A DNA stretch of 64,000 bases from Pseudomonadota bacterium (lineage in GTDB: Bacteria; Pseudomonadota; Alphaproteobacteria; Sphingomonadales; CAKZYD01), in the NCBI GenBank assembly GCA_049324415.1, contig JBMOOS010000039.1, positions 20,363 to 84,362 of the forward strand, written 5' to 3'. Below, piece after piece: positions 46,784 to 62,692 of this stretch (position 1 is the stretch's first letter; the number at the start of each line of letters is the position of its first letter). The notes below the pieces were generated by a model that saw only the letters and a list, made by a program, of their open reading frames with translations, was not told the origin of the DNA and searched no databases. A program made the position numbers and the translations under genes.

Positions 46784-47284
46784 TCATGTTGCAATTATGC
46801 CATGGTTGCGCAAAGCCGCCAGAATAGCCGTGGTTGCGCTGCGTGCTTCATTATCGATGGTCGTCCCGCCGGTGGGGTTGGCGATGGCGGGCTGGCGCGC
46901 GGCGAGCACTTTAACGCCGCCAACGCGAATTTCAGAACCAATCAGCACTCCCGCCTGCCATTGGGCACCGTCGAAGCGGGCGGGCAAGGCCTCGTCCTTG
47001 AGCCAGGCGGTGGCGCCCTCTCGCGGGGCGAGGAAGCGCCAGCCGCCGCTAGCCCACAGGGCAAGCTCTCCGTCCTTGCCTGTCCACTCGCCCGTCCCCC
47101 CTGTGGCGACGATCCACACCGCGCCTTCAGGCGGCGTTGCGGGCGGCGTGGCGCTTAACCGGCTTTCCACCGCAGGGTGGATTAGCGCATCGAGCAGCAG
47201 CAAGGCTTCGTTATGGGTGACCTCCTTTTGCGCCTGATTGGTGGCGATCAGGGGCAGCAGCCAGCGTGCGGTGGCCTCGGACAT
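46784..47284 (-). CDS. DUF2793 domain-containing protein (GTA-cluster terminal gene)
   Basis: LP.I...QAQKEVTHNEAL..LDAL start and ..GEW.G....LA.W..GGWRF..P.EG... Typical partner downstream of the host-specificity gene. Confidence 0.8.
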   Translation of the reverse strand: MSEATARWLLPLIATNQAQKEVTHNEALLLLDALIHPAVESRLSATPPATPPEGAVWIVATGGTGEWTGKDGELALWASGGWRFLAPREGATAWLKDEALPARFDGAQWQAGVLIGSEIRVGGVKVLAARQPAIANPTGGTTIDNEARSATTAILAALRNHGIIAT

Positions 47285-47299: not shown

Positions 47300-49549
47300 T
47301 CATAAAGCGATGGTCACTTGCGCCGGCAGGCCGCGCCCGACCTGCGCCGAACGCTGGTAAAGCCGCAAGCTGAGGGTTGCCGGCAAGCCGCCAAAATCGC
47401 TGAGCTGGTCGGCGGCGCTATAAAGTGCCTGGGGCGTGGTCGTGGCATAGCTGCGCGCCACGGTGGCGCCATTGAGGATTTCCAGGTCATAAGCCTCGCT
47501 TTCCTCGGCGAGGGGGGCATCGGCACCGTCGATCCAGGCGGCGCCGGCGCGGCTGCGCCGGATCCAGCTTATGCTGATGGCGCCATCGGCCTGGCGGCGG
47601 CCCCGCACATGCACCGGGGCAAGGGGGCGCAAATTGGCCGCAGTGAAAGTGAAGGGCGTCTCCCCTGCATTGATAAGAGCCTCGTTTGGCCCCACCGCCT
47701 TATAGCGACGCGTTTCGCCAACCTGCGCCAGTGTCGCGTTAATTGCGACAATGCTCGTGCGGTCCAAAAGGACGAAGCGCTCGCCCGCAAGATGGCCGGC
47801 GATCGCCGCCTCGCTGCCCCCCCGCCCCCGCAGCAATTGGGACAGGATATAGCTGCCGTCGGCTTGCAGAGCGGCATTGCGGAACTGGATGACTTCATCG
47901 CCGAGAAGCGCGGCGTTGGCGCCGCCAAGCACGGCTATTTGTGACCGCGATTCCAGCGTTGCCTGGGGATTGTCCAAGCCAACGCGCACTGTGTTTTGTA
48001 AGTCCCAGACATGAGGGGACGCTGGCGGCAGGGCGTCAAGGGCGGCACCCATGATGGCGGGCAGCGCGCTACGCGCCACGGGCTGATAGCTGAGGCCGCC
48101 ATCGCCCGATTCGAAAAGGCTGGCCGAGCGCCACGCATCATCATCGCCAGTGGCGGCGAAGTAAAAGCGCGGCATGCTCAGCTGCTCCGGGGTCAGCGCC
48201 GGCAGGTCGAAGAGGGTAAAGAAGGTTGGCCCCTGCAAGCGCAGGGTTTGACCGATCGGCGATCCGCCGTCGGCAAGCCCGGCGCCGGTCACCGCTTCCA
48301 AGTCAACAACGCGCCCGGCAAGGCGAACGCTGACGCCGTCATAGCGCTTGTCCTCGACCAGCATCAGCGGCGCCCCGCCCGGTGTCGCCGGCAGGCGAAT
48401 GACATCGCCCGGCTCGATGGCAAGATCGGTTGGCGGCAGCGAAAGGCTGTATCGTGCGCGCCCGCTCCAGGCCTTTTCCAATCGGCGCTCGGCCGCCGCC
48501 TTGGCCGTCGCTGCATCAAGGGCGACGGGGGCGCTGAACGCGCTCGCCCCCTCGCTCGCCGCCGTCCGCCGGCGGGCGCGCTGCACATTGGGCTGGTAGT
48601 CGCGGTCGGTGTCCCAGAAATAGACCCGGGTTTCTCGCGGCAGTTCTGATGCCTCGGCCTGCATACGCTCGATGCGCGGGCGCGGCGCGCCTTCCTCGCC
48701 AGCGCCAAGCCGTGCGGCATCGAAATCGATGGCGCCTTGTGGCATATCGCGCAAATAAAGCACGCCCTGGCTTTCCACCGCGGAAAAGTCGCGGGCGAGC
48801 GAGAGATTTTCCAGCGCATCGCGAAAGCCGGTGCCGCCATCGGTGACGAAGCCGGCGACGCTTCCTGTCAGGCCCCCGCCATCGACGGGCGCAAGCCCCA
48901 CGCGCCCGGCGATGTCCAGCGCCACCGCCGCAAGACCGGCATTGGGCTCGTCGGCCACCACTTCAAAATTGAGATTGGGCACGCGATTGGCGAACTCCGC
49001 CAGGGGCAAGTCCTCGAGGACGGCATAGGCAAGGCCGCGATGGGCCGGTACCTGCCCCACCCCTTGCGCGGCTTCGATCACCGGATCGGGCTGCTGTCCT
49101 TCCTCTCCGGCATAGACCCGCAGCGTGCCACCGACGCTCAGCGGACCACTGGCCGCACGGATGAGTTTGCCGTCGGCCCAGATCCGCTCAACGCGCGCGA
49201 TGGGGCGGCCAGAGAGCGCCACCGCCAGCGAAGCGCTGTAATTGAAGCGCACCGTGGTGGTGCCGCCTCCGCCCCCCTTGCCGCCGCTTCTTTCCTCGGA
49301 CCGGCTTTCGACGAGCCCGCTCGACCAGATGACGTTGCCCGCCACCCGGGCGCGGCCATAGATAAGGGGTATTGGCGCGCCATAGGACGCGCCCTGCACG
49401 CTGAGATCCTTCAGCCGCGGCCCTTCGCGCAGGCCGCCGCCGGGGCGAAAGATCTGGCGGTCGATGAAACTGCCGGCAACGGCGCCAACAAGGCTGCCGA
49501 CGGGGCCGGCGATGGCTTGACCGACAGCGGCGAGGACGAGCGTGGCCAT
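47300..49549 (-). CDS. phage tail/host-specificity protein (RcGTA g15 'megatron'-type, short form, 749 aa)
   Basis: The N-terminus MATLVLAAVGQAIAG...YGAPIPLIYGRARVAGNVIWSS...GGKGGGGG..V.F.YSASLAVAL..GPI..V.RIWADGK...AHRGLAYAVLEDLPL..F.NRVPNLNFEV matches the g15 N-domain. The C-terminal two-thirds are phage-tail_3-like. Start trimmed to MATLVL. Confidence 0.85.
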   Translation of the reverse strand: MATLVLAAVGQAIAGPVGSLVGAVAGSFIDRQIFRPGGGLREGPRLKDLSVQGASYGAPIPLIYGRARVAGNVIWSSGLVESRSEERSGGKGGGGGTTTVRFNYSASLAVALSGRPIARVERIWADGKLIRAASGPLSVGGTLRVYAGEEGQQPDPVIEAAQGVGQVPAHRGLAYAVLEDLPLAEFANRVPNLNFEVVADEPNAGLAAVALDIAGRVGLAPVDGGGLTGSVAGFVTDGGTGFRDALENLSLARDFSAVESQGVLYLRDMPQGAIDFDAARLGAGEEGAPRPRIERMQAEASELPRETRVYFWDTDRDYQPNVQRARRRTAASEGASAFSAPVALDAATAKAAAERRLEKAWSGRARYSLSLPPTDLAIEPGDVIRLPATPGGAPLMLVEDKRYDGVSVRLAGRVVDLEAVTGAGLADGGSPIGQTLRLQGPTFFTLFDLPALTPEQLSMPRFYFAATGDDDAWRSASLFESGDGGLSYQPVARSALPAIMGAALDALPPASPHVWDLQNTVRVGLDNPQATLESRSQIAVLGGANAALLGDEVIQFRNAALQADGSYILSQLLRGRGGSEAAIAGHLAGERFVLLDRTSIVAINATLAQVGETRRYKAVGPNEALINAGETPFTFTAANLRPLAPVHVRGRRQADGAISISWIRRSRAGAAWIDGADAPLAEESEAYDLEILNGATVARSYATTTPQALYSAADQLSDFGGLPATLSLRLYQRSAQVGRGLPAQVTIAL

Positions 49550-49959
49550 TAGGAAACCCCTGGGAAACGGTAGGCGCCGACAAGCCGCGCGCGCCACACG
49601 GGGTCAAGCCGGTGCTCGACCACGCGGCGCGCCAAGGCATAGGCGTGGATCATGCCCTTGTCGCTGGCGAGCGCCACATGCTGCGCCGGTCCATCGATGC
49701 GAAACAGCAAGACATCGCCGGGAAGCGCCGCCACCGGCGGGATCGGCGCCAGGCCGGCGGCGGCAAGATGGCGCTCCAACAGGCCGTGCGCCGGCTGGCG
49801 GCCATAGTCGCAAGGGTCGTCGGTCTGCAACCCCACGCCATGGGCGACATGGATGAGAAGGCCGACGCAATCGAGCCCCCGGCCCAATGCCCGGCCTTGA
49901 TGGCGAAAGGGCGTGCCCAAACACTGCCGGGCGGCGGCCACCAGATCATCGCGGGTCAT
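49549..49959 (-). CDS. NlpC/P60 family peptidase (RcGTA g14 type)
   Basis: GTPFRHQGR...GLDCVGL (catalytic Cys) and ...GD.L.F......HVA.. (His). Conserved position. Confidence 0.88.
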   Translation of the reverse strand: MTRDDLVAAARQCLGTPFRHQGRALGRGLDCVGLLIHVAHGVGLQTDDPCDYGRQPAHGLLERHLAAAGLAPIPPVAALPGDVLLFRIDGPAQHVALASDKGMIHAYALARRVVEHRLDPVWRARLVGAYRFPGVS

Positions 49960-50795
49960 TGCAAGCCTGGATAGTCGAGGAGCGAGTCAACGCCCGGCAC
50001 GAACGGTTCGCCACGAAAATTCTCGCCATTGGCGAATTTGTCGCGGCATGTGACAAAACGTTTGTCGCAGCCGGCTTCGACTTGAAACCGGTCGCCGATT
50101 TCGATCGGTGCGGCAAGGCTTCCCTGCAGCGCCAGCACGCCGGCGCTGTCGCTGCTCACGTCCATTTCCAAGCCGGCATTGCCGCCGCCAAGCCACAACA
50201 GCCGGCCATAGTGAAACCAGCCATCGGGAAAACCAAGGGCGCTGCGCATGCGTTTGGTCCCTTCCACCGCCGCCACCTGGCTCATCACCGTGAAGTCGCG
50301 CAAGGCGACGCGGCATTGCCGGTCGCCGAGGTCGGCGCGGCATTCGGGCGAGAAAACGGCGCCCACCGGCTGCTGCAGGGCTTGTTTGAGGCCGCGCATT
50401 TCGGCGGTGAAACGAGCGTCCTCGGCGCGTACTTCACCAAGGGTGCCGGTTTGCAGGACGATGCGCCCGGCCGGCGGGTCGGCCCAATTGACGAGGAACA
50501 CCGCAATACGCGCCAAGTCATAGCGCCCGGCAAGCAGGTCCGCCTCGCGGATGGCGCTGTCGGACAATACGCCTTCAATTTCCATATTATCGACGTTAAG
50601 GCCACTGCCGGCGGCGATCTGCGAAGGCAGGAAGGAGGGCGCCGGGCGATAGCGCGCGCCATCGATGACAAGCGTCTGATCGTGGGTGGTGAACCCAAGG
50701 CTGACGCCGTCCCGCCGGGTGACGCGCCAGCACAAGGCAAGGCTGGTCACCGGCGCGGCGAGATGCGCCGCCAGGGCGGGGGAAAGGCTGAGCAC
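49956..50795 (-). CDS. DUF2163 / BR0599-domain tail hub protein (RcGTA g13 type)
   Basis: T.LA.CWRVTRRDGV.LGFT.HD, SPEC.ADLGD..C, and C-terminal GCDKRF.TC..KF.N..NFRGEP.VPG. Confidence 0.88.
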   Translation of the reverse strand: MLSLSPALAAHLAAPVTSLALCWRVTRRDGVSLGFTTHDQTLVIDGARYRPAPSFLPSQIAAGSGLNVDNMEIEGVLSDSAIREADLLAGRYDLARIAVFLVNWADPPAGRIVLQTGTLGEVRAEDARFTAEMRGLKQALQQPVGAVFSPECRADLGDRQCRVALRDFTVMSQVAAVEGTKRMRSALGFPDGWFHYGRLLWLGGGNAGLEMDVSSDSAGVLALQGSLAAPIEIGDRFQVEAGCDKRFVTCRDKFANGENFRGEPFVPGVDSLLDYPGLQ

Positions 50796-50798
50796 GGC

Positions 50799-53153
50799 CT
50801 AAAGCCTGATCTCAACGAGGGGGATGGAAGGCACTTCCCCCGCCGCGAAGGTCTCGAAGCTGACTGCAAGGCTGTCCTCGGCGAAGCGCACGGGCACATC
50901 GAACTCGAAGCCGGCGGTGATCTGCGCGCCGCTGACCGGCGGATTTTCAAAATCGAGCACGCCGGTGGTGGTGTCGACGACCCAGCCGCTGGTCAGCTCG
51001 ACCCCATCGAGGGCGACGCGCACCGTTCCCGCCACCGGCTTCAAAATGGGGCGCACCACATCGGCGCCAAGGTCGCCATAATGCTTCACCAGTTGGAAGC
51101 TGGTGGCAAGGCCATCGCCCGCACCTAGCACTTGATCGCTCGCGCTGACCGAGGTGCCCACGCTGGCGGAGCTGAAATCGGCCCAGTCCTTGAAGCGAAA
51201 GCCGTGGGCGCGACCTTGGCGGGCGCGAAAAAAGGCGATGAGCTGGGCCAGGTCGGCCTCGCCGCGCAAGCCTCCGCCCACGTCATAGCGGGCACGCGCC
51301 TGCGCCCAATTGATATTGCGCTGTTCGGCGCCGGAGACCATCTCGCTCACCGTGGTGGAAAAGACAGGGCCGCCCGTGGCGCCGAAAGCGATATCGACGG
51401 GAAAGCGCACCTCGTGGAAGCCGGTCATATCGTCATCCTCCAGTTGGAAAAAAACAAAGCCGTCCCGGGCGACCTGCGGATAGGCCCAGACGAAGACCTC
51501 GGCAAAGCCGCGGGCGCGCCCATCCTCGATGGCGCGCGCGATGTTGCGCCACAGCGCACCATCGGCGGGGTCAAGGACGAAGCCGGCGAAATAATCGCTG
51601 TCCTGCGGGCTGTAGCCGAAACGCGCAGCGACTTGCGCAAGGCCCGCCGCATGGGCGCGCCAATCGCCAGCGATGACGTGGTCATAGTCTTCGACCTGCA
51701 GCCGGGTGAAGGCGGGAAATGACCAGCTTGCCGGCATGTTGACGCTGGCCAGCATGGGCGCGTCCGTGCGCAACACCTGCGGGGTGTAGACCAGAAGAAA
51801 GACCTTGGCGCCGGGATAGGCCCCCTGCACCGCATCGCGCAAGGCAAGGGTCGCCGCGCCCAGCTTCGTCCCGAGCCAATCGAGATAAGCCTGCTGCGCC
51901 GCATCTGGCGTTTCGGTGACGCTTTGATGGGCCGGCGGCACCGCCTGTCCCGTCTCCGCCGTATAAAGGGCGGTGGTGGTAGCGTCGTAAAAGCAGGGCT
52001 TGGCGCTAGCATCGGACGCAACCCACCACCAGGGCTCACCAATCTGCACCGCAGGGAGAAGGCCGGCGGCGGCCTGCACGCCGGTAAATTCCAGAAAGGC
52101 GTCGGCGAGATAATCCATGGCGGTGTCGTTGGTGGGCGTAAGGAGGGTGGAGGGCGGCTGCCAGCCGGTGAGCGCCGGGCTGGCGTCAAAGGCGCGCTGC
52201 TTCCAGCTTGCCGGCGCCCAAGCGTCGAAGAGCTCGAAGGAAAGCGAAAGGATGACCTCATAGCCCAAGGCGGCGGCGCGGGCGAAATAATCCTGATGCC
52301 ACGCCCGGCACGGGGCATTGAGGACGCTGCCATTGCCATCGCGGGCGGCGATGAAACGGCTCTCGCCGGCATCGAAGGCCAAGCGGAAATAATGGCTCAT
52401 CCCGGCATAATGGTCGAGCGCGCCTTGATAGCCGAGATGAAGGGCGTTGCGCAGCAGACGCTCAGGCGTCTGGTTGAATACATCGTCATAGCCATTGGCG
52501 AGGCGCAGCGGGTGCGGCGGGGTGAAGGCATCGCCAAGGCCGATGGTGCTCAGCGGCCCCTCGGCCGCCATCGCGCTGATTTCCACCCAGGCCTCGGCGG
52601 CGCCATTGGCGAGCGGGCCGGTGGCGACGCCATCAAAGTCGGGCGGCACCATGGAGATGAACATGCGGTCGATATCGCCCGGCCATAGCGGGTCGGCTTC
52701 TTGGGGAAGAAGAAAGCCGCCGTCCATTTGGCTGAAGTCAAGGGTGATGAGGGCGTCATCGGTGGCGCCGACGGCATAGTTCCAGAGCCGCACATACCAG
52801 GTGCGCGGCGCCCCGCTGGCGTCGCGGCCTTCGATGGTGAGGGTGGGGCCATTGACCTCGGCCAGGCCGCGGATGCCGCCGGCGCGCCAGCGGAAGCGCA
52901 AAACCGTGCCGCTATAGTCCCGCGCCGTTTCATAGCGCAAATGCGGCGGGTCGAGGGTATCGACGCTGTCCCAAATAAGCCCGGCAAGATTGTCGCGCTC
53001 GTAAAATGTCAAATCGACCCTGAGGGCGTCGCTCCCCTGGGTGATGACCGAGGCCATCATCGGGCGGGGGAAGTTGACGGTCCAGAAGCGGGGGTCGAAG
53101 CGCTTGATGAAGGTGCGCCTCAGCGCGTCTTCGGGGGCGGTGAGCCAATACAT
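50799..53153 (-). CDS. DUF2460 distal-tail protein (RcGTA g12 type) fused in frame to a ~575-aa N-terminal module of unknown (TIM-barrel-like?) function
   Basis: The C-terminal 209 aa (MTGFHEVRFPVDIAFGATGGP....RN.NW.....YDV..G......L..LIAFF.AR.GR.HGFRFKDW.D) are a complete DUF2460. The 575 upstream codons are in the same frame with no stop and have normal W/Y/F/D-rich composition. An internal GGAGG-N8-ATG lies at 51441-51426. Confidence 0.8.
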   Translation of the reverse strand: MYWLTAPEDALRRTFIKRFDPRFWTVNFPRPMMASVITQGSDALRVDLTFYERDNLAGLIWDSVDTLDPPHLRYETARDYSGTVLRFRWRAGGIRGLAEVNGPTLTIEGRDASGAPRTWYVRLWNYAVGATDDALITLDFSQMDGGFLLPQEADPLWPGDIDRMFISMVPPDFDGVATGPLANGAAEAWVEISAMAAEGPLSTIGLGDAFTPPHPLRLANGYDDVFNQTPERLLRNALHLGYQGALDHYAGMSHYFRLAFDAGESRFIAARDGNGSVLNAPCRAWHQDYFARAAALGYEVILSLSFELFDAWAPASWKQRAFDASPALTGWQPPSTLLTPTNDTAMDYLADAFLEFTGVQAAAGLLPAVQIGEPWWWVASDASAKPCFYDATTTALYTAETGQAVPPAHQSVTETPDAAQQAYLDWLGTKLGAATLALRDAVQGAYPGAKVFLLVYTPQVLRTDAPMLASVNMPASWSFPAFTRLQVEDYDHVIAGDWRAHAAGLAQVAARFGYSPQDSDYFAGFVLDPADGALWRNIARAIEDGRARGFAEVFVWAYPQVARDGFVFFQLEDDDMTGFHEVRFPVDIAFGATGGPVFSTTVSEMVSGAEQRNINWAQARARYDVGGGLRGEADLAQLIAFFRARQGRAHGFRFKDWADFSSASVGTSVSASDQVLGAGDGLATSFQLVKHYGDLGADVVRPILKPVAGTVRVALDGVELTSGWVVDTTTGVLDFENPPVSGAQITAGFEFDVPVRFAEDSLAVSFETFAAGEVPSIPLVEIRL

Positions 53154-53180: not shown

Positions 53181-53858
53181 TCAGCGGTCGCGCTCGGCCC
53201 GTTCGACCGCGCGGCGCACGGCAAGGGCGATTTGCCCGGCGCTTTCGCGGCCCAGGCGGGCGCTGGGCGCGGCGTTGACATTGATGGTGATGGCGATGGA
53301 CCGGCGTTGCGCCAGGTTGGGATCAGCGCGGCTTAAGGGGGCGATGCGGCCGCTGGCGGGGGGAAGAAAAACCTCCGGCCCGCGTTCGCCGACCAAGACC
53401 GGACGCCGCTCGACGACGGGGCCGCCGATGGCCCGCCCGGCGGTCGAGAGCACGGGCGGCGCGCTCCCGAAGATGGCGCTAAAGAAGCTCCCGAGAAGCC
53501 CGCCCCCGGAAGCGCCGCCGAAAATCCGATCGAGGCCAGAACGGATGGCGGCGCTGGCGATATCGTTCAAGACCCCCAGCGCCACCACGCGCAAATCCTC
53601 GAACGACAGGCGGCCGGTGCGGGCAAAGCGGATGAAGGCGTTTTCCATGCGCCGACCGGCGCTGGTGGCGGCGGTGGCCAGCAGGGCGCCAAAATTATCC
53701 ATTTCGCCGGCAAGGCTGCCCAATTGCCGCTTGGCGCCATTGCCGGCATCACTAAGGCCGGCAAGGTCGGCGCGCACGCGGCCCAGATCCCGCTCAAGGG
53801 CGCGGGTATCGGCGCGCACGGCAACGACCAGCGTGTCGAGGACTGTCTCCACGCGCAT
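53181..53858 (-). CDS. short phage tail tape measure protein (RcGTA g11 type, 225 aa)
   Basis: Helical N-terminal half, a Gly-rich middle (GGASGGGLLGSFFSAIFG) and ...GGPV...RP.LVGERGPE.F.P. Size and position match GTA g11. Confidence 0.8.
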   Translation of the reverse strand: MRVETVLDTLVVAVRADTRALERDLGRVRADLAGLSDAGNGAKRQLGSLAGEMDNFGALLATAATSAGRRMENAFIRFARTGRLSFEDLRVVALGVLNDIASAAIRSGLDRIFGGASGGGLLGSFFSAIFGSAPPVLSTAGRAIGGPVVERRPVLVGERGPEVFLPPASGRIAPLSRADPNLAQRRSIAITINVNAAPSARLGRESAGQIALAVRRAVERAERDR

Positions 53859-54414: not shown

Positions 54415-54731
54415 GCCGGCCCCTTGAGCACCGCCAACAGGATATCGCGATAGGCGGTGGTCACGGCGGCGACGCCATCGCCAGCGATGAGTTCGCCCAC
54501 GTCGTCACGGCTGAGGCCCGCGCCGCCCGCGTCAAGGCACGCCCACAAAACGGTGACAATGTCGCCAAGCCGGGGTGCGCCGCTGCTTGCCCGTTCGATA
54601 AGGGCAAGCAGGCTCCCCTCGGCTTCCTCGATGCGCGCAAGGGCGGCAAAGCTTGGCCGCAGCACATAGCCTGTGCCGCCCAGGCGCAGCGCGACCTCGC
54701 CGCGCAAGGGATTGGCCTTATGTTCAGACAT
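54411..54731 (-). CDS. gene transfer agent family protein (RcGTA g10 type tail assembly chaperone)
   Basis: ANPLRGEVALRLGG..Y.LRPSF.AL..IE.. is typical of GTA g10. Start trimmed to MSEHKANP. Confidence 0.8.
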   Translation of the reverse strand: MSEHKANPLRGEVALRLGGTGYVLRPSFAALARIEEAEGSLLALIERASSGAPRLGDIVTVLWACLDAGGAGLSRDDVGELIAGDGVAAVTTAYRDILLAVLKGPA

Positions 54732-55137
54732 CGGTGAAGACCACTGGCCCCGAGCTTTCCAGCTGCAGGCTATAGGTCCGCTCGCCATTGAAGTCGCCGG
54801 CATATTCAAGGCTGGTGACCTGGAAGCTGCCGGCAAAGCTGTCGCCGGTCTCGAACACTACTTGATAGGCGCCAAGGCTTGCATCCATCGCCTTGGCTTG
54901 AACGAGGCGCTCGGCGGCGCCGTCGGTGAACACGCCGGCACCGGTAATCGATACCGCGCGCACCCCGGCGCCGGCAAGCAGCGTGCGCCAGCCATTGGAC
55001 GCCTTGGTGGTGACATCGACCGCCTCGGCGTTGATGGTGAATTGGGTGGTGCGCATGCCGGCAACGGTGGTGAGGACCGGCGGGGTCCCATCATCGGAAA
55101 TTTTCAACAAAAAGGCACTGCCTTTTTCGGCGGGCAT
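54724..55137 (-). CDS. phage major tail protein, TP901-1 family (RcGTA g9 type)
   Basis: G..FLLKI.D......T.VAG.R.T....N.E.VDVT.K.S.GWR.LL.GAG.R...I.G.GVF.D. 137 aa. Confidence 0.88.
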   Translation of the reverse strand: MPAEKGSAFLLKISDDGTPPVLTTVAGMRTTQFTINAEAVDVTTKASNGWRTLLAGAGVRAVSITGAGVFTDGAAERLVQAKAMDASLGAYQVVFETGDSFAGSFQVTSLEYAGDFNGERTYSLQLESSGPVVFTDV

Positions 55138-55162
55138 GGCAAGGCTCCTTTCAGCCGTGGAG

Positions 55163-55570
55163 TTAAGGAAGGGCGTGGGTGAGGGCGCGGAAGCGCATAA
55201 TCGCGTGATGGAGGGGTCCCGCCGCCTCGCGCAGGATTTGCCCGAACTCGAAGCGCAAGCTTACAAGCGCGTGGCCGGGAAGGGTGAGCGCCGCCTCGTG
55301 CAAGGCGTCATAAGCAAGGGCCATCAACTCCTTGGCTTCGCCATGACCGGGGGCGGCGGACCACAAATGGACATCGAAGCGATGCTCCTCGCCGCTGAAG
55401 CTTTTGCTCGACCAGTCGCGCACCGTCGCTGGCCCAAGGGTGGCATAAGGATAGGCCGCCTCAGGGGAAACATGGTCGTAAACCCCGTTAAGCCGCGCCA
55501 TCAGCGCCATATCGCCGGTCAGGCGGCCATAGACCGCCTGTTGCAGCGGCCAGCTTGCGTCAAGGGGCAT
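55163..55570 (-). CDS. DUF3168 tail terminator/completion protein (RcGTA g8 type)
   Basis: LQ.AVY.RL..D..L..L...VYD.VP....YPY..LG and ....H.W. 135 aa. Confidence 0.82.
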   Translation of the reverse strand: MPLDASWPLQQAVYGRLTGDMALMARLNGVYDHVSPEAAYPYATLGPATVRDWSSKSFSGEEHRFDVHLWSAAPGHGEAKELMALAYDALHEAALTLPGHALVSLRFEFGQILREAAGPLHHAIMRFRALTHALP

Positions 55571-55590
55571 GAATAAATTCCCGATGCTGT

Positions 55591-55935
55591 TCAGCGGGCG
55601 GAGAAATCGTCTGGCGTCAGCCGCGCTGCCAAGGCGGCGGGACCAAGAAAGGGCCGCGCCGGCTGGCGGGCGGTGCCGAATTCGACAAAGCCGGCGTGGG
55701 GCGCGGCGGCGACAACCTTGACGGCCGCGCCATCCTCGATAACCGCGATGCTTTCGGCAAGCGTGCTGGGCAAGGGCCGGGCCGGGTCGCGCCCGGCCAG
55801 CACATTGGTGCGGGCATCCATGGCGACTTTTTCGGCAAGCTGGCGCGAAAGGCCGGCAAGGTGCGCCGCCAAGGCGGCGCGATAGGCCTTGTCGGCTTGC
55901 GCCAGGCGATCCGTGGACAGCGCCGTCTTAATCAT
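55591..55935 (-). CDS. HK97 gp10-family phage neck/tail-component protein
   Basis: ...HAGFVEFGTARQPARPFLGPA is the HK97-gp10-like signature. ATGA overlap with the upstream gene. Confidence 0.7.
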   Translation of the reverse strand: MIKTALSTDRLAQADKAYRAALAAHLAGLSRQLAEKVAMDARTNVLAGRDPARPLPSTLAESIAVIEDGAAVKVVAAAPHAGFVEFGTARQPARPFLGPAALAARLTPDDFSAR

Positions 55936-56267
55936 GTCGCCGCCGCCCCTTCGCAATCCAGCTCCAGCATGCGCCGGGCGCCGGTGGAGTCGATGACCCG
56001 CAGCACCAGCAAGGGGCGGCCGCGCCACAGGAGACGCATGCCCGGCGCCACCCCGGCGCGATAGCGCAAATAGACTTTATAGGCCACCACGGCATCACGG
56101 CGCTGGGCGATATCGACACTGCTCGCGGCGCGCGGGGTGATGGCCGCCTTGCAGCGCGCGACATCGCGCCAGACGTCCTCTTGGCCGCCACCGCCATCGC
56201 CGGCATCGCTCGCCCGCGCTTGCAGCCATACCGAGTGGCTGAGCGCGCCGGCTTCTTCCCCGCCCAT
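55932..56267 (-). CDS. phage head closure / head-tail adaptor protein (RcGTA g7 type)
   Basis: ...VWA.......E......Q......Y.V.LRYR.GV..GMRL.W.GR.L.V..V.D. Start trimmed to MGGEEAG (TGATG junction with g6). Confidence 0.75.
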   Translation of the reverse strand: MGGEEAGALSHSVWLQARASDAGDGGGGQEDVWRDVARCKAAITPRAASSVDIAQRRDAVVAYKVYLRYRAGVAPGMRLLWRGRPLLVLRVIDSTGARRMLELDCEGAAAT

Positions 56268-56806
56268 CACAGGTGCATCTCCCGATAGGGTTGCCACAAG
56301 GCGGTGACGGCGGTGGGCACCGCCGGCGCCGAAGCATCGTCGCGATAGCGATAGGCGTGGGCGATGAGGCGCAACAGTCCTTGGCGCAGGGGCCAGGGGA
56401 CGGCGTTCCAATCCGCGCCATAGCCGGCGCGATAGTCGATCTCGAGACGGCTGGCGGTGGCGGGCAAGCGTTTAAGGACAAGCTGGTCGCGGCCATCGCC
56501 CTGCACCAGCGCATAGTCGCCGGCGGACCAATCGAAGCTTGCGAGGCTGCTGGCTTCGCGCACCGTAAGGATGGCTTCCACCGGCCCATGGCCAAGGGTG
56601 ATGGCGGCCGTCATCGCTTGAGTGCGGTAGCGCCAGGTCTGGCTGATGAGGGAACGGCCCGTGAACCCCTCGCAGGTCTGGCGCGCCGTGGTGATCAGCA
56701 TGGCGACAAGCGCGTCTTCCGTCTCGTCCTCGAGGCGCAAATAGGCGCGCGCCTCGTCGAGCGAGACAGGCTCCACCGCCGGCGGGGAAAGAAGAAGATA
56801 GCTCAT
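56267..56806 (-). CDS. phage gp6-like head-tail connector protein (RcGTA g6 type)
   Basis: P.VEPVSLDEARAYLRLEDETEDALVAMLITTARQTCEGFTGRSLI.QTWRY is the classic gp6-like connector N-domain. Confidence 0.85.
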   Translation of the reverse strand: MSYLLLSPPAVEPVSLDEARAYLRLEDETEDALVAMLITTARQTCEGFTGRSLISQTWRYRTQAMTAAITLGHGPVEAILTVREASSLASFDWSAGDYALVQGDGRDQLVLKRLPATASRLEIDYRAGYGADWNAVPWPLRQGLLRLIAHAYRYRDDASAPAVPTAVTALWQPYREMHL

Positions 56807-57087
56807 CAGCGCTCATCCACCAGAATGGTGAAGCTGCGTTCCTCGACAAGGCCGCCCGATAGAGCGATGCGGTTGGCAACGCGATAGGCGTGGCGCTTAA
56901 TCCCGGCGGCCAGGGTGACTGAAGCCTTGGTCCCGTCGAGCGCCTCGCCAAGGATGGCAAGCCCGCCTTCCTCTTGCGGCGAAAGCGACCAGTTGCTCGT
57001 GAGGATGGTTTGTCCGGCAAACCCGGCGTCCGCCCATTCAATGCTGTAGTCAAGGGTGGCTTGCGGGTCTTTAAGAAAGGTGGTCAT
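56806..57087 (-). CDS. small phage protein (93 aa), K-DP-x3-LDY-x3-W family
   Basis: MTTFLKDPQATLDYSIEWA....GQTI.TS.W...... ...Y.V.NRI....G...ERSF.I.V.ER resembles a widespread small phage beta-sandwich family that I recall sitting next to fibre/tail genes. Only the last 93 codons of track ORF 56806..57516 look real. Confidence 0.6.
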   Translation of the reverse strand: MTTFLKDPQATLDYSIEWADAGFAGQTILTSNWSLSPQEEGGLAILGEALDGTKASVTLAAGIKRHAYRVANRIALSGGLVEERSFTILVDER

Positions 57088-57587
57088 ACGCTGGCCGCCG
57101 TCAAGGTCACGGTAACGTCGATGGTGTCGCCGTTCGCCACTACCCGGTTGCCACCGGCAAATGCCGCCCCGCCCATCAAAATGCCGGTGGTCCCGCCCTT
57201 GGTCGCATTGGTGGCGACGAAGGCGCCGCCCACGGTGCCGCTGGCGTTGATGGCAAAGCTCGCCTTGACGGCTGAATTGTCCACCGATTGCGCCGAGACG
57301 GTCCCCAAGGTCAGCGTCGGCCGGGCGGCGTTTGAATAGACGGTGCTTTCGGTCCAGCCGGCGTGGGAAGCCATGGTGTCGGCGGCGGCGAAAGTGGGCG
57401 TCCCGCCGGCGAGCCCGACATAATGCGCCGCCGTGTAGGCAGCGCCTTTCCAGAACTTGTCGAGAATCTCGTCGAGCCCGACATTGACCGTGATGTTTTT
57501 TACGGTCTCGCGCCATTTGACGGCGCCCGCCGCATCGCGGCAGACAACTTCATAGGTGTTGCGGAAAGCGGTATTGATTTGGGTCAT
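57084..57587 (-). CDS. hypothetical phage structural protein (167 aa, beta-rich)
   Basis: ATGA-coupled on both sides within the operon. Real-looking composition (W, Y, F, N, T rich). I recognise no family. Confidence 0.6.
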   Translation of the reverse strand: MTQINTAFRNTYEVVCRDAAGAVKWRETVKNITVNVGLDEILDKFWKGAAYTAAHYVGLAGGTPTFAAADTMASHAGWTESTVYSNAARPTLTLGTVSAQSVDNSAVKASFAINASGTVGGAFVATNATKGGTTGILMGGAAFAGGNRVVANGDTIDVTVTLTAASV

Positions 57588-58660
57588 GCCTTGATGCTCC
57601 TTTGGCTGGCAGTGATGGTGATGGTGCGCTTCCCCGCGCCCACGGTGAGGGTGCGGCTGGCCGCGCCGATGGCAATGGTCCTTCCCGGGCTGGGCGTGAC
57701 GGTGGTGGCAAGGGCAAACAGCGCACCTGCGCCATGCCCTATCTCGATAAGGTCATTGACGGTGAGCTTGCCCGATGCGCTCGCCGCGAACAGGCCGGCA
57801 ATGGTGATGGTTGCGCCCACCGCCGTGCGTTCTTGCTGGGCAATGTCAAGGTCCACGGCAAGCGCCAGGTCGGCGCCGATCCTGACTGCGTTCAGCGGCG
57901 AAAGGCCAGCGCCAAGGCTTAGCGACAGTGCCTCGGCGATGGCCTGGCCGCCGGGGCTTGCCGCCAGCCCGGCTCCTATCCCAAGCGCCATCGGGGCGAT
58001 GAGATAAGAGGTGACGGCAGCATCGAGCCCGGCGCCCTGGTCAAGGCTTATCAGCCCGGCAACGCCCGCCGTGCCGCCCAGTCCTGCGCTCGCGCCAAGG
58101 CCTAGATTTATTGTCTCGCTAAATACCGTACCGCCCGCAACCGGTGTAATGCTGACATGGGCGAGCGCCCAATAGCCGCTCAAGCTTGCATCGCCCAGCC
58201 GGAAGGTGGCGATAGAGCCAGTGAAGGTCAGCGTCGCCGCGGCATTGTTGGCGACCCAGTCGGCGACGCTGGTACGCAAAACATTGCTCGCGTCGTAGAA
58301 CTGCGCGGCATTGGTCGAACCCGGCGCGATGTCGAGGAGGACCGTCGCGCCGTCGAGCACCTGGATGCGCTGGGCGGTTTGCGCGAAACCCTCATCGCCC
58401 AGGGCAAGGCGTATCTGATATTGGCCGGGCGCTGGCAAATCGACGGAGAAGTTTCTTATTTTGGTGGCAAGATGCGAATGCACCCCGGCAAGCCGGGCGT
58501 CCACCGCGTTCGAGCGGTTGGCCCGCGTCAGGCCGCCGGTATTGTCCCAGCCGAAGGTCTGACCGTCGCGGGTGACGGGATAGGTATCGTTGCCGACGAA
58601 CACGTCGCCCGGCGCGTCCGTCACATGGGACGCCGTCGCCCTGAAGTTAAAGCCGGCCAT
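57584..58660 (-). CDS. hypothetical phage structural protein (358 aa; globular N-domain + periodic Gly/Ala/Leu-rich C-terminal half)
   Basis: Operon strand, starting 54 nt after the capsid stop. The N-terminal ~175 aa are beta-rich. The C-terminal half has recurring L.LGAGL-type segments and ends in four R(T/S)-led ~9-mers. Confidence 0.6.
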   Translation of the reverse strand: MAGFNFRATASHVTDAPGDVFVGNDTYPVTRDGQTFGWDNTGGLTRANRSNAVDARLAGVHSHLATKIRNFSVDLPAPGQYQIRLALGDEGFAQTAQRIQVLDGATVLLDIAPGSTNAAQFYDASNVLRTSVADWVANNAAATLTFTGSIATFRLGDASLSGYWALAHVSITPVAGGTVFSETINLGLGASAGLGGTAGVAGLISLDQGAGLDAAVTSYLIAPMALGIGAGLAASPGGQAIAEALSLSLGAGLSPLNAVRIGADLALAVDLDIAQQERTAVGATITIAGLFAASASGKLTVNDLIEIGHGAGALFALATTVTPSPGRTIAIGAASRTLTVGAGKRTITITASQRSIKA

Positions 58661-58714
58661 GGATGAAATGGGCGAGGCGGCCGTTTCTTGCCGCCCCGCG
58701 TCCGTCCCTTGTTT

Positions 58715-59974
58715 TCAGCTGAGGGCGAATTTGAGAAGCTTGATGGCCTCGGAATTCATCACCCCGCCGCCTGTGCGCCTGGTGGCGTAGAAATGAATGA
58801 AGGGCTTGTTGGAGAAGGGGTCGCGCAAGACCCGTGTCCCCATGCGGTCGGTAATGAGATAGCCGCGGGTGAAATTACCGAAAGCGATGGGCAGACCGTC
58901 GGCGCCGATATCGGGCATGTCCTCGGCTTCAACGACGGGATAGCCAAGCAAGGTGGCGGCCGCCGCCTCGCCCAACCCCGGCCGCCATAGATAATTGCCA
59001 TCGGCATCCTTGAACTTGCGGATGCGGGCCAGCGTGTTGGTGTTCATGACGAAGCGCGCGCCTTGGCGATAGACCGGCCGCAAGGCATGGACGAGGTCCA
59101 CCAGCTTATCGGCAGGATTGCTAGCCGGAAAGTCGCCGGAAACCCCGGTCGCCACATGCTGCAAGGTGCCGAAGGGGCGGCTTGCGTCATCGCTGGCGGC
59201 GGTGGCGTAGCTGAGGAAACCCCTGGGCTTGTCGATCCCGTCGCCGGCGACAAAGGCGGCGCCTTCCTTGGCCCCGAATTCGATGGCAAGCTCGTCGGCG
59301 AGCCAAGCCTCGACGTCGAAAAAGGCATCATCGAGCATGCCTTGGGTCGCCGCCGGATTGGCGTAAATCTCGCCCAAGGGCGGGGTGACCTCGGCAAATT
59401 GCGGGGTTCCCGTCTCCGGCCGGGCAGCGCTTTCCCCCACCCAGCCCGAGGCGGCGCCCGTCATGCTCACCAGTTTTTTGTAACTGCCGCTGCCGATCTG
59501 CGTCACATTGGCGATGGCGCGGATGGGGGAGACATCCTTTAAGAGACGCTCGATGGCGGCATCGATTTGCTGCGGCACGGCAAATCCGCCGTCCGCGTCA
59601 ACCCCGGTATTGAGCGCCTTGGCCTCAATCCGGGGCAAGCCGGTCTCGAGGCCCTTGCGCACATAGCGATCGATGAACGCGGTCTTGTATTCGTCGGCTT
59701 GTCCGCCGCGCCCGCTGCCTTCGAGCATGGGCCGAGCGGCGCGGCGCGTCAGCATGTCGACACGGCCGTGCAGCCGGTCGACCTCGGCATTGATACGGTC
59801 AAGTTTTTGCTCGAGGACGGCATCGCCCGTCCGCTCGGCCTCTTCATGGCTGGCCTTGAAGGCCTCGAAGGCCTGGCCCAGTTCGTCGACCGCCGCCTTG
59901 ATTTCATAGGCGCTGGCGGCGGGCCGGGCACAGGCTTCGGCCGGACTATCGGTTGGAGAGTGGCTATAGGTCAT
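58715..59974 (-). CDS. phage major capsid protein, HK97 family (RcGTA g5 type)
   Basis: N-terminal delta/scaffold-like helical region, then ..GGF.VP.......I..L....SP.R..A.V. and ...P.GFL.Y...... 419 aa. Confidence 0.92.
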   Translation of the reverse strand: MTYSHSPTDSPAEACARPAASAYEIKAAVDELGQAFEAFKASHEEAERTGDAVLEQKLDRINAEVDRLHGRVDMLTRRAARPMLEGSGRGGQADEYKTAFIDRYVRKGLETGLPRIEAKALNTGVDADGGFAVPQQIDAAIERLLKDVSPIRAIANVTQIGSGSYKKLVSMTGAASGWVGESAARPETGTPQFAEVTPPLGEIYANPAATQGMLDDAFFDVEAWLADELAIEFGAKEGAAFVAGDGIDKPRGFLSYATAASDDASRPFGTLQHVATGVSGDFPASNPADKLVDLVHALRPVYRQGARFVMNTNTLARIRKFKDADGNYLWRPGLGEAAAATLLGYPVVEAEDMPDIGADGLPIAFGNFTRGYLITDRMGTRVLRDPFSNKPFIHFYATRRTGGGVMNSEAIKLLKFALS

Positions 59975-60540
59975 GGACGTGCTCCTGTGTTGAGGGCGTG
60001 AATGAGGTTTTGCAAGCTCGCAAGAAGCGCCGACGAAGTGGGCTTTGCGTACCTGTCTGGCGGCGCGTCAGGGGCTGGTCTTGCCTTGATGGCGGTAAGC
60101 CTGGCGGCCGGCTGCATGGGGAAAGTCACCAGCGAGACTTCCCACAAGTCGATGTCGATGAGCCGGCGCACGCTGCGCGCGGCGTCGACTTCCGCCGCGC
60201 GGACCTTGTAGCCGATCGACAGGCCATCAAGGGCGCCGGCCCGCAGCAAGGCCTGGGCTTCCCGAGCACGAATGACATCGCCCAGCAGCCGGCCGCGCAC
60301 GAACAGGCCGTGGCTGTCCTCCCGGATATGCTCGATGACGCCGACAGGCTCGCGCGGGTCGTGCTGCCATAAAAGCTTGACGCCGCCCGCGCCGCGGGCT
60401 TTCAGCGAGCGGGCAAAGGCGCCGGGCATGATTTCATCGCGACCCTGGTCGATGCGTCCGAAAACGCTGGCATAGCCCTCGAAGCGTCCCACCTCGGCAA
60501 GGGACGCGAGGGCGCCAGCGGCGTTGCAGCAATGCGCCAC
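59971..60540 (-). CDS. HK97 family prohead protease (RcGTA g4 type)
   Basis: FEGYASVFG..D..RD.I.PGAF..SL......VK.LWQHD...P.G and ...GL.V.G.L......A.E....R.GALDGLSIGY. 4-nt overlap with the capsid gene. Confidence 0.9.
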   Translation of the reverse strand: MAHCCNAAGALASLAEVGRFEGYASVFGRIDQGRDEIMPGAFARSLKARGAGGVKLLWQHDPREPVGVIEHIREDSHGLFVRGRLLGDVIRAREAQALLRAGALDGLSIGYKVRAAEVDAARSVRRLIDIDLWEVSLVTFPMQPAARLTAIKARPAPDAPPDRYAKPTSSALLASLQNLIHALNTGARP

Positions 60541-60577
60541 GGCGAGTGTTCCTTCTGCAATGGTCGAAGCCGGTTTC

Positions 60578-60901
60578 CTAAGGGCGGACCGTCTTGAGGT
60601 AGAGCACCAGCCCGACGAGGAGAGCGGTGATCATGATCTTGACCAGCCAATTGACGGCGGCACGCCAGGCGGTGCGCCGCAGATCGCGCCAGGCGGTGAT
60701 GAGCTGGCGCAATTCGTAAATATCGCCGCCGGCATGGGCATCGCCAAGGCCAAGCTGGGCAAGGGCGCGGGCAGCGCCTATTTCGCTGGCCTCCTCGACA
60801 AGCGCACGCAAGGTAACGACATCGGCGCCGCCAGCCTGGGCTTGCCGCGCCAGGGCGGCGAGCAGGCTTTCGCTGTTTTGGTATCGGGCTGGCTTGTTCA
60901 T
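60578..60901 (-). CDS. small protein with C-terminal TM helix at the g3.5 position of GTA clusters
   Basis: 107 aa with a helical N-terminal part and a C-terminal TM (WLVKIMITALLVGLVLYL). The position between portal and protease mirrors the RcGTA g3.5 slot. Confidence 0.55.
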   Translation of the reverse strand: MNKPARYQNSESLLAALARQAQAGGADVVTLRALVEEASEIGAARALAQLGLGDAHAGGDIYELRQLITAWRDLRRTAWRAAVNWLVKIMITALLVGLVLYLKTVRP

Positions 60902-61044
60902 GAGGCAATCGGGAATAGCCGAGCGGGCAGGTGGCTCTCGCCTGCCCGCGCGTCGTCGGTTTGGCTTGGAAGTTTTTTTCGCTATTTAAGATTTATTGAA
61001 AACATTCTCCATCCGGCCCGTAAGAGTTTGCGCCGGCAGGCTTT

Positions 61045-61227
61045 TTAGAGCCAAATGAGAAGAATTTCGTCAGGCCGCGTGGTCTCGGTCTCGATCAACA
61101 GTTGAATGCCCGGCTGCGGCGGGGGCGGCGCGGCGCGGGCGCTGTCTTCGGTCGTTGGCGCCGCCTGCTCCAGGGCAAGCGCCGTCAGCCCCATCAACAT
61201 GGTTCCCTTCAAGGTCGCTGCCAGCAT
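61045..61227 (-). CDS. possible tiny secreted/Pro-rich peptide (60 aa), moron-like
   Basis: ATG preceded by GGGAGA 7 nt upstream. Signal-peptide-like MLAATLKGTMLMGLTALALEQA, then a PPPPQP segment. Flanked by AT-richer DNA. No homology recognised. Confidence 0.3.
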   Translation of the reverse strand: MLAATLKGTMLMGLTALALEQAAPTTEDSARAAPPPPQPGIQLLIETETTRPDEILLIWL

Positions 61228-61359
61228 GATCGCATCTCCCTGCACGCCATGGCCAATATGTCAGCAAGACCAATGCCAGATTCGTAAAACGCATATTTCT
61301 CAAATCGTTAGCATGAGAAAGGCGCGTCATGGTTAGGAAAATGTAAAGATTTCCAACGC

Positions 61360-62604
61360 TCAAGCGCCAGCCTCGTCCCCTTCTGGGACGTCCTCGCCAT
61401 CGCGCATCCGGGCCGGCAGGAGCGGCAATCCCAGAACGACACGCTTTTCCGCGTCAGTCAAAAAGCTTGCCGCCGCCACCATGCGCCATAAAGCCTCGCG
61501 CTCCGGTAACAAGGCCGGGATGGCGTTGCGGTCGAAGTCGAGCTTCAACCCACCGCCAAAGGCGGGGGCGAGCCAGCGGTCGAGGGCGCCGGCAAGCTTG
61601 CCGAGTAGGGGCAACAGGCTGAGCCGCCACAGGGCGCGGTTGGCTTCCTGATAATTGGCGTAAGTATTGTCGCCGGGGATGCCCAACAGCATGGGCGGGA
61701 CGCCGAAGGCGAGCGCGATGTCGCGGGCGGCAGCGTTTTTGGTCGCGTGATAATCCATGTCGGACGGCGAAAAGGCCATCTGCTGCCATTTAAGGCCGCC
61801 TTCGAGAAGCAGAGGCCGGCCGGCGTTGCCGCTGCCTTGGAAGTTTTCCTCCATTTCTTTTTTAAGACGCAGGAACTGCTCCTCGCTGAGCGCTGGCGCG
61901 CCGTCGCGGGGCTCGAAAACGAGCGCCCCGGAAGGCCGCGCCGCGTTGTCGAGAAGAGCCTTGTTCCAGCCATCCACGGCGCCGTGGAGGTCGAGGCCGC
62001 GGGCTGCGGCATCGAGGGCTGAAAGACCCAAATGGTCGTCGAGGGGATCGAATTCGCGGATATGCAAAATTGACGAGGCGCCGCTAATGGGATCGACGGG
62101 AAAACGGTGCTTGGCGCCTCCAGCGCGGTATTCATAGGCCTCCGGCCAGCCGGACGCGCCAGCAAGGATATGCATGCGGTCGGGCCGCAGCACATGAAGC
62201 TCCGCCGGCGCCCCCTCGCTGTCATCGACCCGCTCGATGAAGGCATCCCCCGCAAGCAGAAGATAGCCAATGAGCGCTTCGATGAATTCCGCGCCGCCAA
62301 GCAGCGGGTTGGGCCGTCGCAAAAGATCAAGAAGCGGGTGCTGGATCAGCGCCCGGCCTTCCTGCTCAAGCCGCCAGGGCACTGCGGCGATCGATTGGCT
62401 GACGATCCGCACGCAACGCTGGACCACGGGATTTTCCGCCATCCCGCGCCGCACGAGGCTGGCATAAGACCGCCCCGACCATTGGGCGCCCATGCCAGCG
62501 AAAAGCCATGTTTCAAGCCGCGCCGGCGCGCCGCCACGCGCCGCGCTCGCCTTGGCTTCCAGTACGGGTCGCGGCCGCCGGAAGGGATTGCCAAATATCG
62601 CCAT
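61360..62604 (-). CDS. phage portal protein, HK97 family (RcGTA g3 type)
   Basis: ...NP.V.RCV..I...IA.VPW.L......... .HPLL.LL.RPNP...G..F.E......LL.G.A. and ...GW.....Y. 414 aa. Confidence 0.92.
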   Translation of the reverse strand: MAIFGNPFRRPRPVLEAKASAARGGAPARLETWLFAGMGAQWSGRSYASLVRRGMAENPVVQRCVRIVSQSIAAVPWRLEQEGRALIQHPLLDLLRRPNPLLGGAEFIEALIGYLLLAGDAFIERVDDSEGAPAELHVLRPDRMHILAGASGWPEAYEYRAGGAKHRFPVDPISGASSILHIREFDPLDDHLGLSALDAAARGLDLHGAVDGWNKALLDNAARPSGALVFEPRDGAPALSEEQFLRLKKEMEENFQGSGNAGRPLLLEGGLKWQQMAFSPSDMDYHATKNAAARDIALAFGVPPMLLGIPGDNTYANYQEANRALWRLSLLPLLGKLAGALDRWLAPAFGGGLKLDFDRNAIPALLPEREALWRMVAAASFLTDAEKRVVLGLPLLPARMRDGEDVPEGDEAGA

Positions 62605-62692
62605 GTGATGTCCTTGCCCGCTTGGGATATGAAAAAGACTATTGGCCCTTGAAGGGGGTTTGAGGTCCGGCCCGGCGTTTCAAGACGGGCTC

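Follow-up and report, generated by a model that had tools for sequence, protein, structure and literature searches.

The locus described here raises the question of how the baseplate of a gene transfer agent (GTA) is equipped for adsorption when its host-specificity protein, the megatron, lacks a large module. It lies in a 64,000-nucleotide stretch of DNA (the window) from a Pseudomonadota bacterium of the Sphingomonadales (assembly GCA_049324415.1, contig JBMOOS010000039.1, positions 20,363 to 84,362 of the forward strand), the minus strand of which carries, from about 64000 to 46784, a collinear head-tail cluster (g2-g15) like that of the Rhodobacter capsulatus GTA (RcGTA). An earlier note, made from the sequence alone, had remarked that the megatron homologue g15 is short, that the nearby gene g12 carries an addition of about the missing size, and that this suggested domain relocation or module swapping within the baseplate. 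The analysis presented here argues against relocation of one domain; instead, in this GTA lineage an outer glycan-binding or -cleaving module of the baseplate appears to have been replaced by a non-homologous one, a reading to which we assign a probability of roughly 0.55.

The g15 product (749 aa) is encoded after the hub and NlpC/P60 peptidase genes, as is the RcGTA megatron. Aligned to the latter (PDB chain 6TBA_8A, 1304 aa), its residues 15 to ~205 correspond to 27 to ~222 and its residues 206-748 to 766-1303 (E = 9e-63), leaving ~223-765 without counterpart. The RcGTA megatron has been divided into iris/penetration (1-46), adhesin-like (47-229), peripheral (230-744), central (745-984) and fibre-binding (985-1304) domains (Bardy et al. 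2020, PMC7296036). Since the gap matches residues 230-744, the part missing from g15 is the peripheral domain; the other four parts are kept. Pfam finds no GTA_TIM (PF13547) match in g15, and the NCBIfam model GTA_megatron (NF048004) matches in two stretches, the N-terminus and profile positions 759-1298, with a total of 557.6 bits. The latter value is below the curated equivalog cut-off of 800 bits, so alignments and thresholds tuned to RcGTA under-call g15 in this lineage. The absence of the large module, as well as the size and domain position of RcGTA g15 given in the earlier note, is thus borne out.

The N-terminal part is closed at about residue 197 by FANRVPNLNFEV, with N188, R189, P191 and E196 invariant in the homologue alignment. 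After a seven-residue linker (ADEPNAG) the protein continues with LAAVALDIAGRVGL...VAGFV...FRDALENLSLARDFSAVESQGVL, i.e. directly into the region that follows the TIM barrel in RcGTA, as had been proposed. The proposed closing motif stands as well, but the part that it ends measures ~200 aa and not ~215 aa. In MAFFT alignments of short and long g15 proteins the gap falls at a single point, between NR(I/V)PNxxFEVxxxx and (x)LxxIxxDLxxRxGL. Other lineages carry here either a GTA_TIM module of ~470-550 aa (468-486 extra residues in the GTA_TIM-bearing homologues aligned) or an alternative module of ~300-325 aa. The GTA_TIM-bearing homologues also have the motifs GSEM/LxGLT and GIDAY, so that the GSExxGLT and IDxY signatures cited in the earlier note are real. 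The start of g15 (MATLVL) agrees with the homologue consensus, and its ATG (49549) overlaps the g14 stop codon by one nucleotide (TAATG); this overlap and the tight packing of neighbouring start and stop codons are consistent with translational coupling.

The g12 product (784 aa) consists of three domains. Its C-terminal part is a complete distal tail protein (Dit) of the DUF2460 family, equivalent to RcGTA Dit residues 2-210 (E = 8e-66), and residues 1-577 are additional. This addition consists of a beta-sandwich (NCTSP_N) and a barrel (TIM-barrel_NCTSP), matched over the full length of both Pfam profiles (1-191 of 191 and 1-348 of 348) and far above the gathering score of 27 bits. This module is that of the tail sheath proteins of phage N4, gp64 and gp65, NCTSP_N aligning to residues 53-129 of gp65. 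Because the alignments of g12 and g15 are strong, chance is not an issue for these matches. An AlphaFold2 model based on 60 homologues (mean pLDDT 90.9) is all-beta over residues 1-207, forms an alternating beta/alpha barrel over 212-566 and, after a low-confidence linker, adopts the Dit fold. In a Foldseek search of the PDB its best match was N4 gp64 (TM-score on target 0.67, 33% identity), followed by gp65, the Dit of roseophage R4C, and then GH50 agarases, the PgaB C-terminal domain, GH14 beta-amylases and GH66 dextranases. Identity to these glycoside hydrolase (GH) barrels is 8-14%, and there is no match to a CAZy family. QIGEPWWW (E373) and EDY (E488, D489), both following predicted strands, are invariant in the g12 barrel. 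The NCTSP module is widespread in phage tail proteins, with 326 phage records found by tblastn, including Acinetobacter siphophages, phi92-like myophages, and Campylobacter, Pseudomonas and Achromobacter phages; matches in BFVD are proteins of 870-1390 aa. In N4, gp64 and gp65 form heterodimers in a six-fold sheath, the major subunit gp65 being the receptor-binding protein (PMC13434306). A literature search for the NCTSP Pfam families or for N-terminally extended GTA g12 proteins retrieved nothing specific, and the phi92 paper makes no mention of gp142.

A truncated g15 pseudogene, or a g12 fusion produced by gene calling or assembly, could give the same picture. One IMG/VR locus indeed has a g15 fragment of 326 aa, and in a Sphingomonadales metagenome-assembled genome (MAG; L016, 7590-9956) g12 is split into a 526-aa NCTSP open reading frame (ORF) and a 251-aa ORF with the barrel end and Dit, which may be due to a frameshift or an error of sequencing, or may be a form that is split in nature. 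However, clusters of proteins with the three domains of g12 and a length of 770-800 aa number more than 120 among the matches listed, and those of g15 proteins of 720-765 aa with the junction in frame more than 100. Moreover, both proteins are highly conserved over their full length, and the start and stop codons of their neighbours are tightly packed. With so many conserved homologous clusters of both genes, an artefact or decay is rejected, its probability being negligible.

Since the missing length (~540 aa) is similar to that of the g12 addition (577 aa), as the earlier note had pointed out, the ancestral GTA_TIM domain might itself have been transferred from g15 to the g12 N-terminus, with so much divergence since that it can no longer be recognised. 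Both modules are, in addition, alternating beta/alpha structures in which acidic residues that follow strands of the barrel are conserved (GSE and EFG in GTA_TIM; GEP with E373, and ED with E488/D489, in NCTSP). The searches for homology speak otherwise. With 431 and 296 bits the g12 module matches the NCTSP families, its identity to phage proteins is 31-33%, and the g12 extension (residues 1-575) has no Pfam match to GTA_TIM at E <= 10. Conversely, GTA_TIM-bearing g15 proteins have no NCTSP match and show instead a weak link to GH113 that is lacking in NCTSP, and the megatron has no counterpart of NCTSP_N. Searching each module with phmmer against all ORFs of 86 loci gave no cross-match, and when 26 NCTSP modules were compared with 24 peripheral domains by hhalign, the best probability was 1.2%. 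Against the PDB, a peripheral-domain profile matched two megatrons only, and a g12 profile only N4 gp64/gp65 and two Dits, even at E <= 10. Megatron chains were not among the best 50 Foldseek rows for g12, though 8GTC_M has a built peripheral domain. No detectable homology therefore exists between the NCTSP module and GTA_TIM. Relocation of the same domain is rejected, the g12 addition belonging to different families (PF23844 and PF23845), and we consider it very improbable. Of the earlier proposal of module swapping, there remains replacement by a non-homologous module, the function of which would be similar.

The distribution of the two architectures was analysed in loci selected by their hub gene, g13, whose place is between g12 and g15 and which is neutral towards both. 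The best 80 of 404 hub-positive loci in contigs from one genome per species were taken, and to these were added five loci from protein look-ups and the window; a four-sequence hub alignment was used for the scan, as a six-sequence alignment was too divergent for it. Domains were mapped onto ORFs, and both g12 and g15 were readable in 63 loci. In 27 of these a fused g12 (NCTSP and Dit) goes with a short g15, in 24 a plain g12 (199-225 aa) goes with a g15 containing GTA_TIM (1220-1408 aa), and in 12 a plain g12 (199-295 aa) goes with a g15 containing a different middle module (1066-1205 aa). None of the 63 loci shows a mixed state, and the surroundings of plain-g12 loci did not reveal a separate NCTSP gene. 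When IMG/VR was scanned with a g12 alignment, 80 more fused-g12 loci came out, among which 54 more fused/short pairs could be classified directly; 59 g15 ORFs in such loci measure 717-763 aa after start correction, the only exception being the 326-aa fragment. The same pairing is found in Luteithermobacter, Pacificimonas, Rhodothalassium and a soil metagenome, and named carriers belong to the Sphingomonadales, Emcibacterales, Rhodothalassiales and Iodidimonadales. The co-occurrence of short g15 and long g12 that the earlier note had suggested tabulating is thus clear-cut, with 27 hub-anchored pairs and ~60 IMG/VR loci and not a single short/short or long/long locus; a short g15 next to an ordinary g12 of 210 aa was never seen in the loci examined.

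In a neighbour-joining tree of the hub proteins the plain-g12 loci form one clade, and every fused/short locus falls outside it. This single split accounts for the whole table, which therefore reflects one evolutionary event and not many independent ones. It also gives room to an explanation by two unlinked events on the same ancestral branch, in which g15 lost or never acquired its domain and a phage-derived NCTSP module was separately fused to g12. DUF2460 Dits readily gain modules elsewhere, e.g. a GH18-like barrel before Dit in P0264, C-terminal extensions and tandem forms, and the g15 insertion point varies independently, with three states. Such a coincidence has to be set against the lack of any intermediate among ~120 loci from at least four orders. 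In addition, both modules are glycosidase-like barrels of similar size, and the Dit N-terminus is at an interface beside the site of the RcGTA peripheral domain; all of this evidence is suggestive only. We regard unlinked events as possible but rather unlikely.

Additional modules are frequent in the DUF2460 Dit family as a whole. Its 5705 representatives include C-terminal extensions, tandem forms and the GH18-like combination (P0264, 1339 aa), and further examples are P0385 (1190 aa), with a tape-measure-like N-terminus, and P0348 (764 aa), with a C-terminal Gp38 adhesin-like domain. A fusion of GTA_TIM to Dit was not found among ten representatives scanned. On the megatron side, the third class of g15 proteins (1066-1205 aa; L004, L015, L035, L044, L050, L056, L059, L060, L062, L064, L066 and L080) carries its module at the GTA_TIM insertion point; the insert is 301-324 aa long in the aligned members P0095 and P0111, and no significant Pfam match was found for it in two members scanned. 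Several of these loci have tape measures of phage length. The megatron junction looks like a hot spot of module exchange.

Replacement of the outer module would operate as follows. The locus is the tail end of an RcGTA-like cluster, the baseplate periphery of which differs from that of RcGTA. The short g15 keeps the parts that serve to plug the tail and to open it, to dock to the distal tail ring and to hold the fibres, but lacks the peripheral TIM barrel at the conserved insertion point after ...NRIPNxxFEV. A linker of ~10 residues joins the NCTSP module to Dit residue 2, so that six copies would project from the Dit ring at the junction of tail and baseplate. As the modules are not detectably homologous, this would be replacement by a different glycosidase-like barrel, and not transfer of one domain. 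Most likely the NCTSP module binds, and possibly cleaves, a surface polysaccharide of the recipient cell at adsorption, and would thereby play the part that the megatron peripheral domain has been proposed to play in RcGTA and phage R4C. The N-terminal residue of the RcGTA Dit lies at the interface with hub and megatron, whereas the peripheral domain supports the fibre-binding domain and is regarded as one of the sites of sugar binding (PMC7296036). For R4C, the peripheral domain and accessory domains of Dit have been assigned the capture of carbohydrates (PMC10276861). Through its attachment to Dit residue 2, the NCTSP module would come out at the interface of Dit with hub and megatron. Steric or functional redundancy would explain why NCTSP and GTA_TIM modules never occur together. 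We further propose, more tentatively and at somewhat less than even odds, that the two modules exclude each other because they are structurally equivalent, with N4-sheath-like barrels forming a six-fold crown on the Dit ring in place of three peripheral domains. If so, the symmetry and sugar specificity of the adsorption device, and possibly its enzymatic activity, would have changed, and the ...NRIPNxxFEV junction of the megatron and the N-terminus of Dit would be alternative docking sites for cassettes that determine GTA host range.

Several points weigh against replacement of the outer module. First, the association, although perfect, represents one evolutionary contrast and is no proof that the changes in g12 and g15 are functionally linked. 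Second, the midpoint root of the hub tree lies inside the fused/short group, and loss of the g15 domain and its never having been gained both fit. Third, a model of the peripheral domain from three sequences reached a pLDDT of only 40.9 and was not used for fold searches, so that the structural comparison of the two barrels is indirect; both are (beta/alpha)8-like and may share a very remote ancestor. Finally, the position of the NCTSP module in the particle is deduced from its attachment to Dit, its catalytic residues are guessed from sequence conservation, and GTA activity in this lineage is predicted.

The last point leads to a further alternative, in which the cluster is a prophage remnant and its architecture an ordinary variant of the siphophage baseplate. 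Every component has phage homologues, clusters of this kind are found in IMG/VR as viral contigs, and the GTA nature of the cluster in this organism is a prediction. On the other hand, the g2-g15 order is complete, and the tape measure gene g11 encodes only 225 aa. Against the model of the RcGTA tape measure it reaches 20.7 bits, where the cut-off is 220, its length and score suggesting a very short, divergent determinant of tail length. In the fused-type loci the tape measure ORF has a median of 192 aa and never reaches phage length, whereas the plain-g12 loci include phage-like relatives with tape measures of 740-935 aa. As tape measures are short in all fused-type loci, GTA-type clusters are the only ones in which the fused/short form is seen. 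On the downstream side of the cluster there are no adjoining genes for integrase, lysis or replication (the upstream side lies beyond the end of the window). The downstream genes are cellular, namely one for an OmpA-like outer membrane protein and, further on, those for TauE and EAL proteins. The OmpA-like flank is shared by the window, Luteithermobacter, Rhodothalassium and another MAG (L001, 11363-12544; L005, 8354-9739; L166, 3030-4190), and its recurrence after the cluster in different orders suggests vertical inheritance. A prophage remnant is rejected on the basis of gene order, short tape measures and the flank kept across orders, and we consider it improbable.

The features of the locus are listed in the table below. 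The chaperone gene follows that of the tube protein. Four cysteines of the hub (C152, C161, C243 and C250), invariant in the four- and six-sequence alignments, are probably counterparts of the Fe-S ligands of the RcGTA hub. A DUF2793 gene follows g15 at the same position in every fused-type locus with a gene table inspected (L001, L002, L005, L166 and L167). The N-terminal ~110 aa of its product match phage tail fibre families, which makes it a candidate for a minimal fibre; it is probably a short tail fibre.

Table. Features of the head-tail cluster in the window and their supporting evidence.
Feature	Position	Strand	Evidence or remarks
Terminase	62693-63994	-	
Portal	61360-62604	-	
Prohead protease	59971-60540	-	
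Capsid	58715-59974	-	
Two extra ORFs	56806-58660	-	between capsid and head-tail connector genes
Tube	54724-55137	-	
Rest of cluster, terminase to tube	54724..63994	-	including connector and tail completion protein
g11, short tape measure	53181..53858	-	225 aa, GTA-type length
g12, Dit with N-terminal N4-sheath-like module	50799..53153	-	784 aa; Pfam, NCBIfam, PDB profile, AlphaFold2, Foldseek
g12 residues 16-207, NCTSP_N beta-sandwich	52533..53108	-	PF23844, 295.5 bits; all-beta model, pLDDT > 90
g12 residues 212-566, TIM-barrel_NCTSP	51456..52520	-	PF23845, 431 bits; N4 gp64 match
g12 residues 567-577, short acidic linker, barrel to Dit	51423..51455	-	pLDDT dip to 64
g12 residues 578-784, complete Dit domain	50802..51422	-	DUF2460 (PF09343); TIGR02217, 262.5 bits (cut-off 136.65), profile positions 2-209 of 210; RcGTA Dit alignment
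g13, baseplate hub	49956..50795	-	279 aa; Pfam, NCBIfam
g14, NlpC/P60 cell-wall peptidase	49549..49959	-	136 aa; Pfam, NCBIfam
g15, short megatron homologue	47300..49549	-	749 aa; Pfam, NCBIfam, RcGTA alignment, MAFFT
g15 residues 1-200, Gly-rich N-terminal helix region and adhesin-like domain, ending in FANRVPNLNFEV	48950..49549	-	aligns to RcGTA g15 27 to ~222
g15 residues 199-205, junction (ADEPNAG)	48935..48955	-	MAFFT of short, PERI and MID forms: one insertion point in all
g15 residues 243-388, central domain (Phage-tail_3)	48386..48823	-	Pfam, E = 4.7e-30, 105 bits
g15 residues 498-593, Rcc01698_C, inside fibre-binding part	47771..48058	-	E = 3.5e-27, 95 bits
DUF2793 protein	46784..47284	-	166 aa, directly after g15; Pfam; PHROG tail fibre families
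OmpA-like outer membrane protein	45469-46608	-	OMP_b-brl and OmpA; just after DUF2793 gene

Of the two extra ORFs, one encodes a protein of 358 aa without Pfam or PHROG match; the product of the other, 236 aa long, ends in a Gp77 'fiber-tail adaptor' domain. To our knowledge they are not part of the canonical RcGTA order from g5 to g6. At roughly the same place, Pacificimonas (L002, which does not include the capsid gene) has a 713-aa protein with a SASA esterase domain and a 93-aa Gp77 protein. These proteins could possibly be a head decoration or spike. In addition, many GTA-type clusters of the fused/short lineage (L086-L165) are listed in IMG/VR as viral genomes, those contigs with a full cluster being mostly 14-20 kb and others shorter fragments; this is likely a systematic misclassification of GTAs as viruses.

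A difference in the lengths of g12 and g15 was mentioned previously, with nothing reported beyond length (Kogay et al. 2020, PMC7360931). We found no description in the searchable literature of the domain content, the N4-sheath relationship, the reciprocal pairing or the spread beyond the Sphingomonadales, albeit that the domain matches of g12 and g15 are already present in Pfam and NCBI annotations. The finding is a lineage-wide alternative architecture of the GTA baseplate, the functional meaning of which can so far be proposed from domain content. Almost all that is understood of GTA host range and adsorption comes from RcGTA. In the present lineage (Sphingomonadales, Emcibacterales, Rhodothalassiales, Iodidimonadales and many marine MAGs) the outer baseplate appears to be built from a different module on a different protein, and models of receptor recognition based on RcGTA should not be transferred to these bacteria. 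The g12 module is a testable candidate for polysaccharide recognition or depolymerase function of these GTAs, and the two points of modular exchange, i.e. the megatron junction and the Dit N-terminus, could serve to retarget GTA particles.

Compared to known systems, the locus is closest in gene order to RcGTA (Dit Rcc01695, hub Rcc01696, peptidase Rcc01697, megatron Rcc01698; PDB 6TBA/6TEH), with the same succession from g11 to g15, a Dit that aligns end to end, a hub with four invariant cysteines, and the N-terminal, central and fibre-binding parts of the megatron present. It differs from RcGTA in lacking the equivalents of megatron residues ~223-765, in the 577-aa module that precedes Dit and in the DUF2793 fibre-like gene directly after g15. 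Roseophage vB_DshS-R4C (PDB 8GTC; Huang et al. 2023) also has a homologous Dit (46% identity to the modelled Dit part), hub and megatron, but departs in the opposite direction, its Dit being plain (214 aa) and its megatron enlarged to 1447 aa by a carbohydrate-binding insert in the peripheral domain. The major (gp65) and minor (gp64) sheath proteins of phage N4 (PDB 9LC0, 9YF4, 9YF5) contain the NCTSP_N and TIM-barrel_NCTSP module found in g12, and the module, which decorates a six-fold tail structure in N4, would do so in g12 as well. In N4, however, it resides in separate podophage sheath proteins, and is followed in gp65 by eight further domains, whereas in g12 it is covalently fused before a siphophage-type Dit. 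Finally, siphophages of lactic acid bacteria have 'evolved' Dits with carbohydrate-binding modules inserted within the galectin or belt region, the Dit hexamer serving as a platform for glycan recognition. Unlike these, g12 has gained a whole beta-sandwich and TIM barrel at the N-terminus of a Dit of the DUF2460 type.

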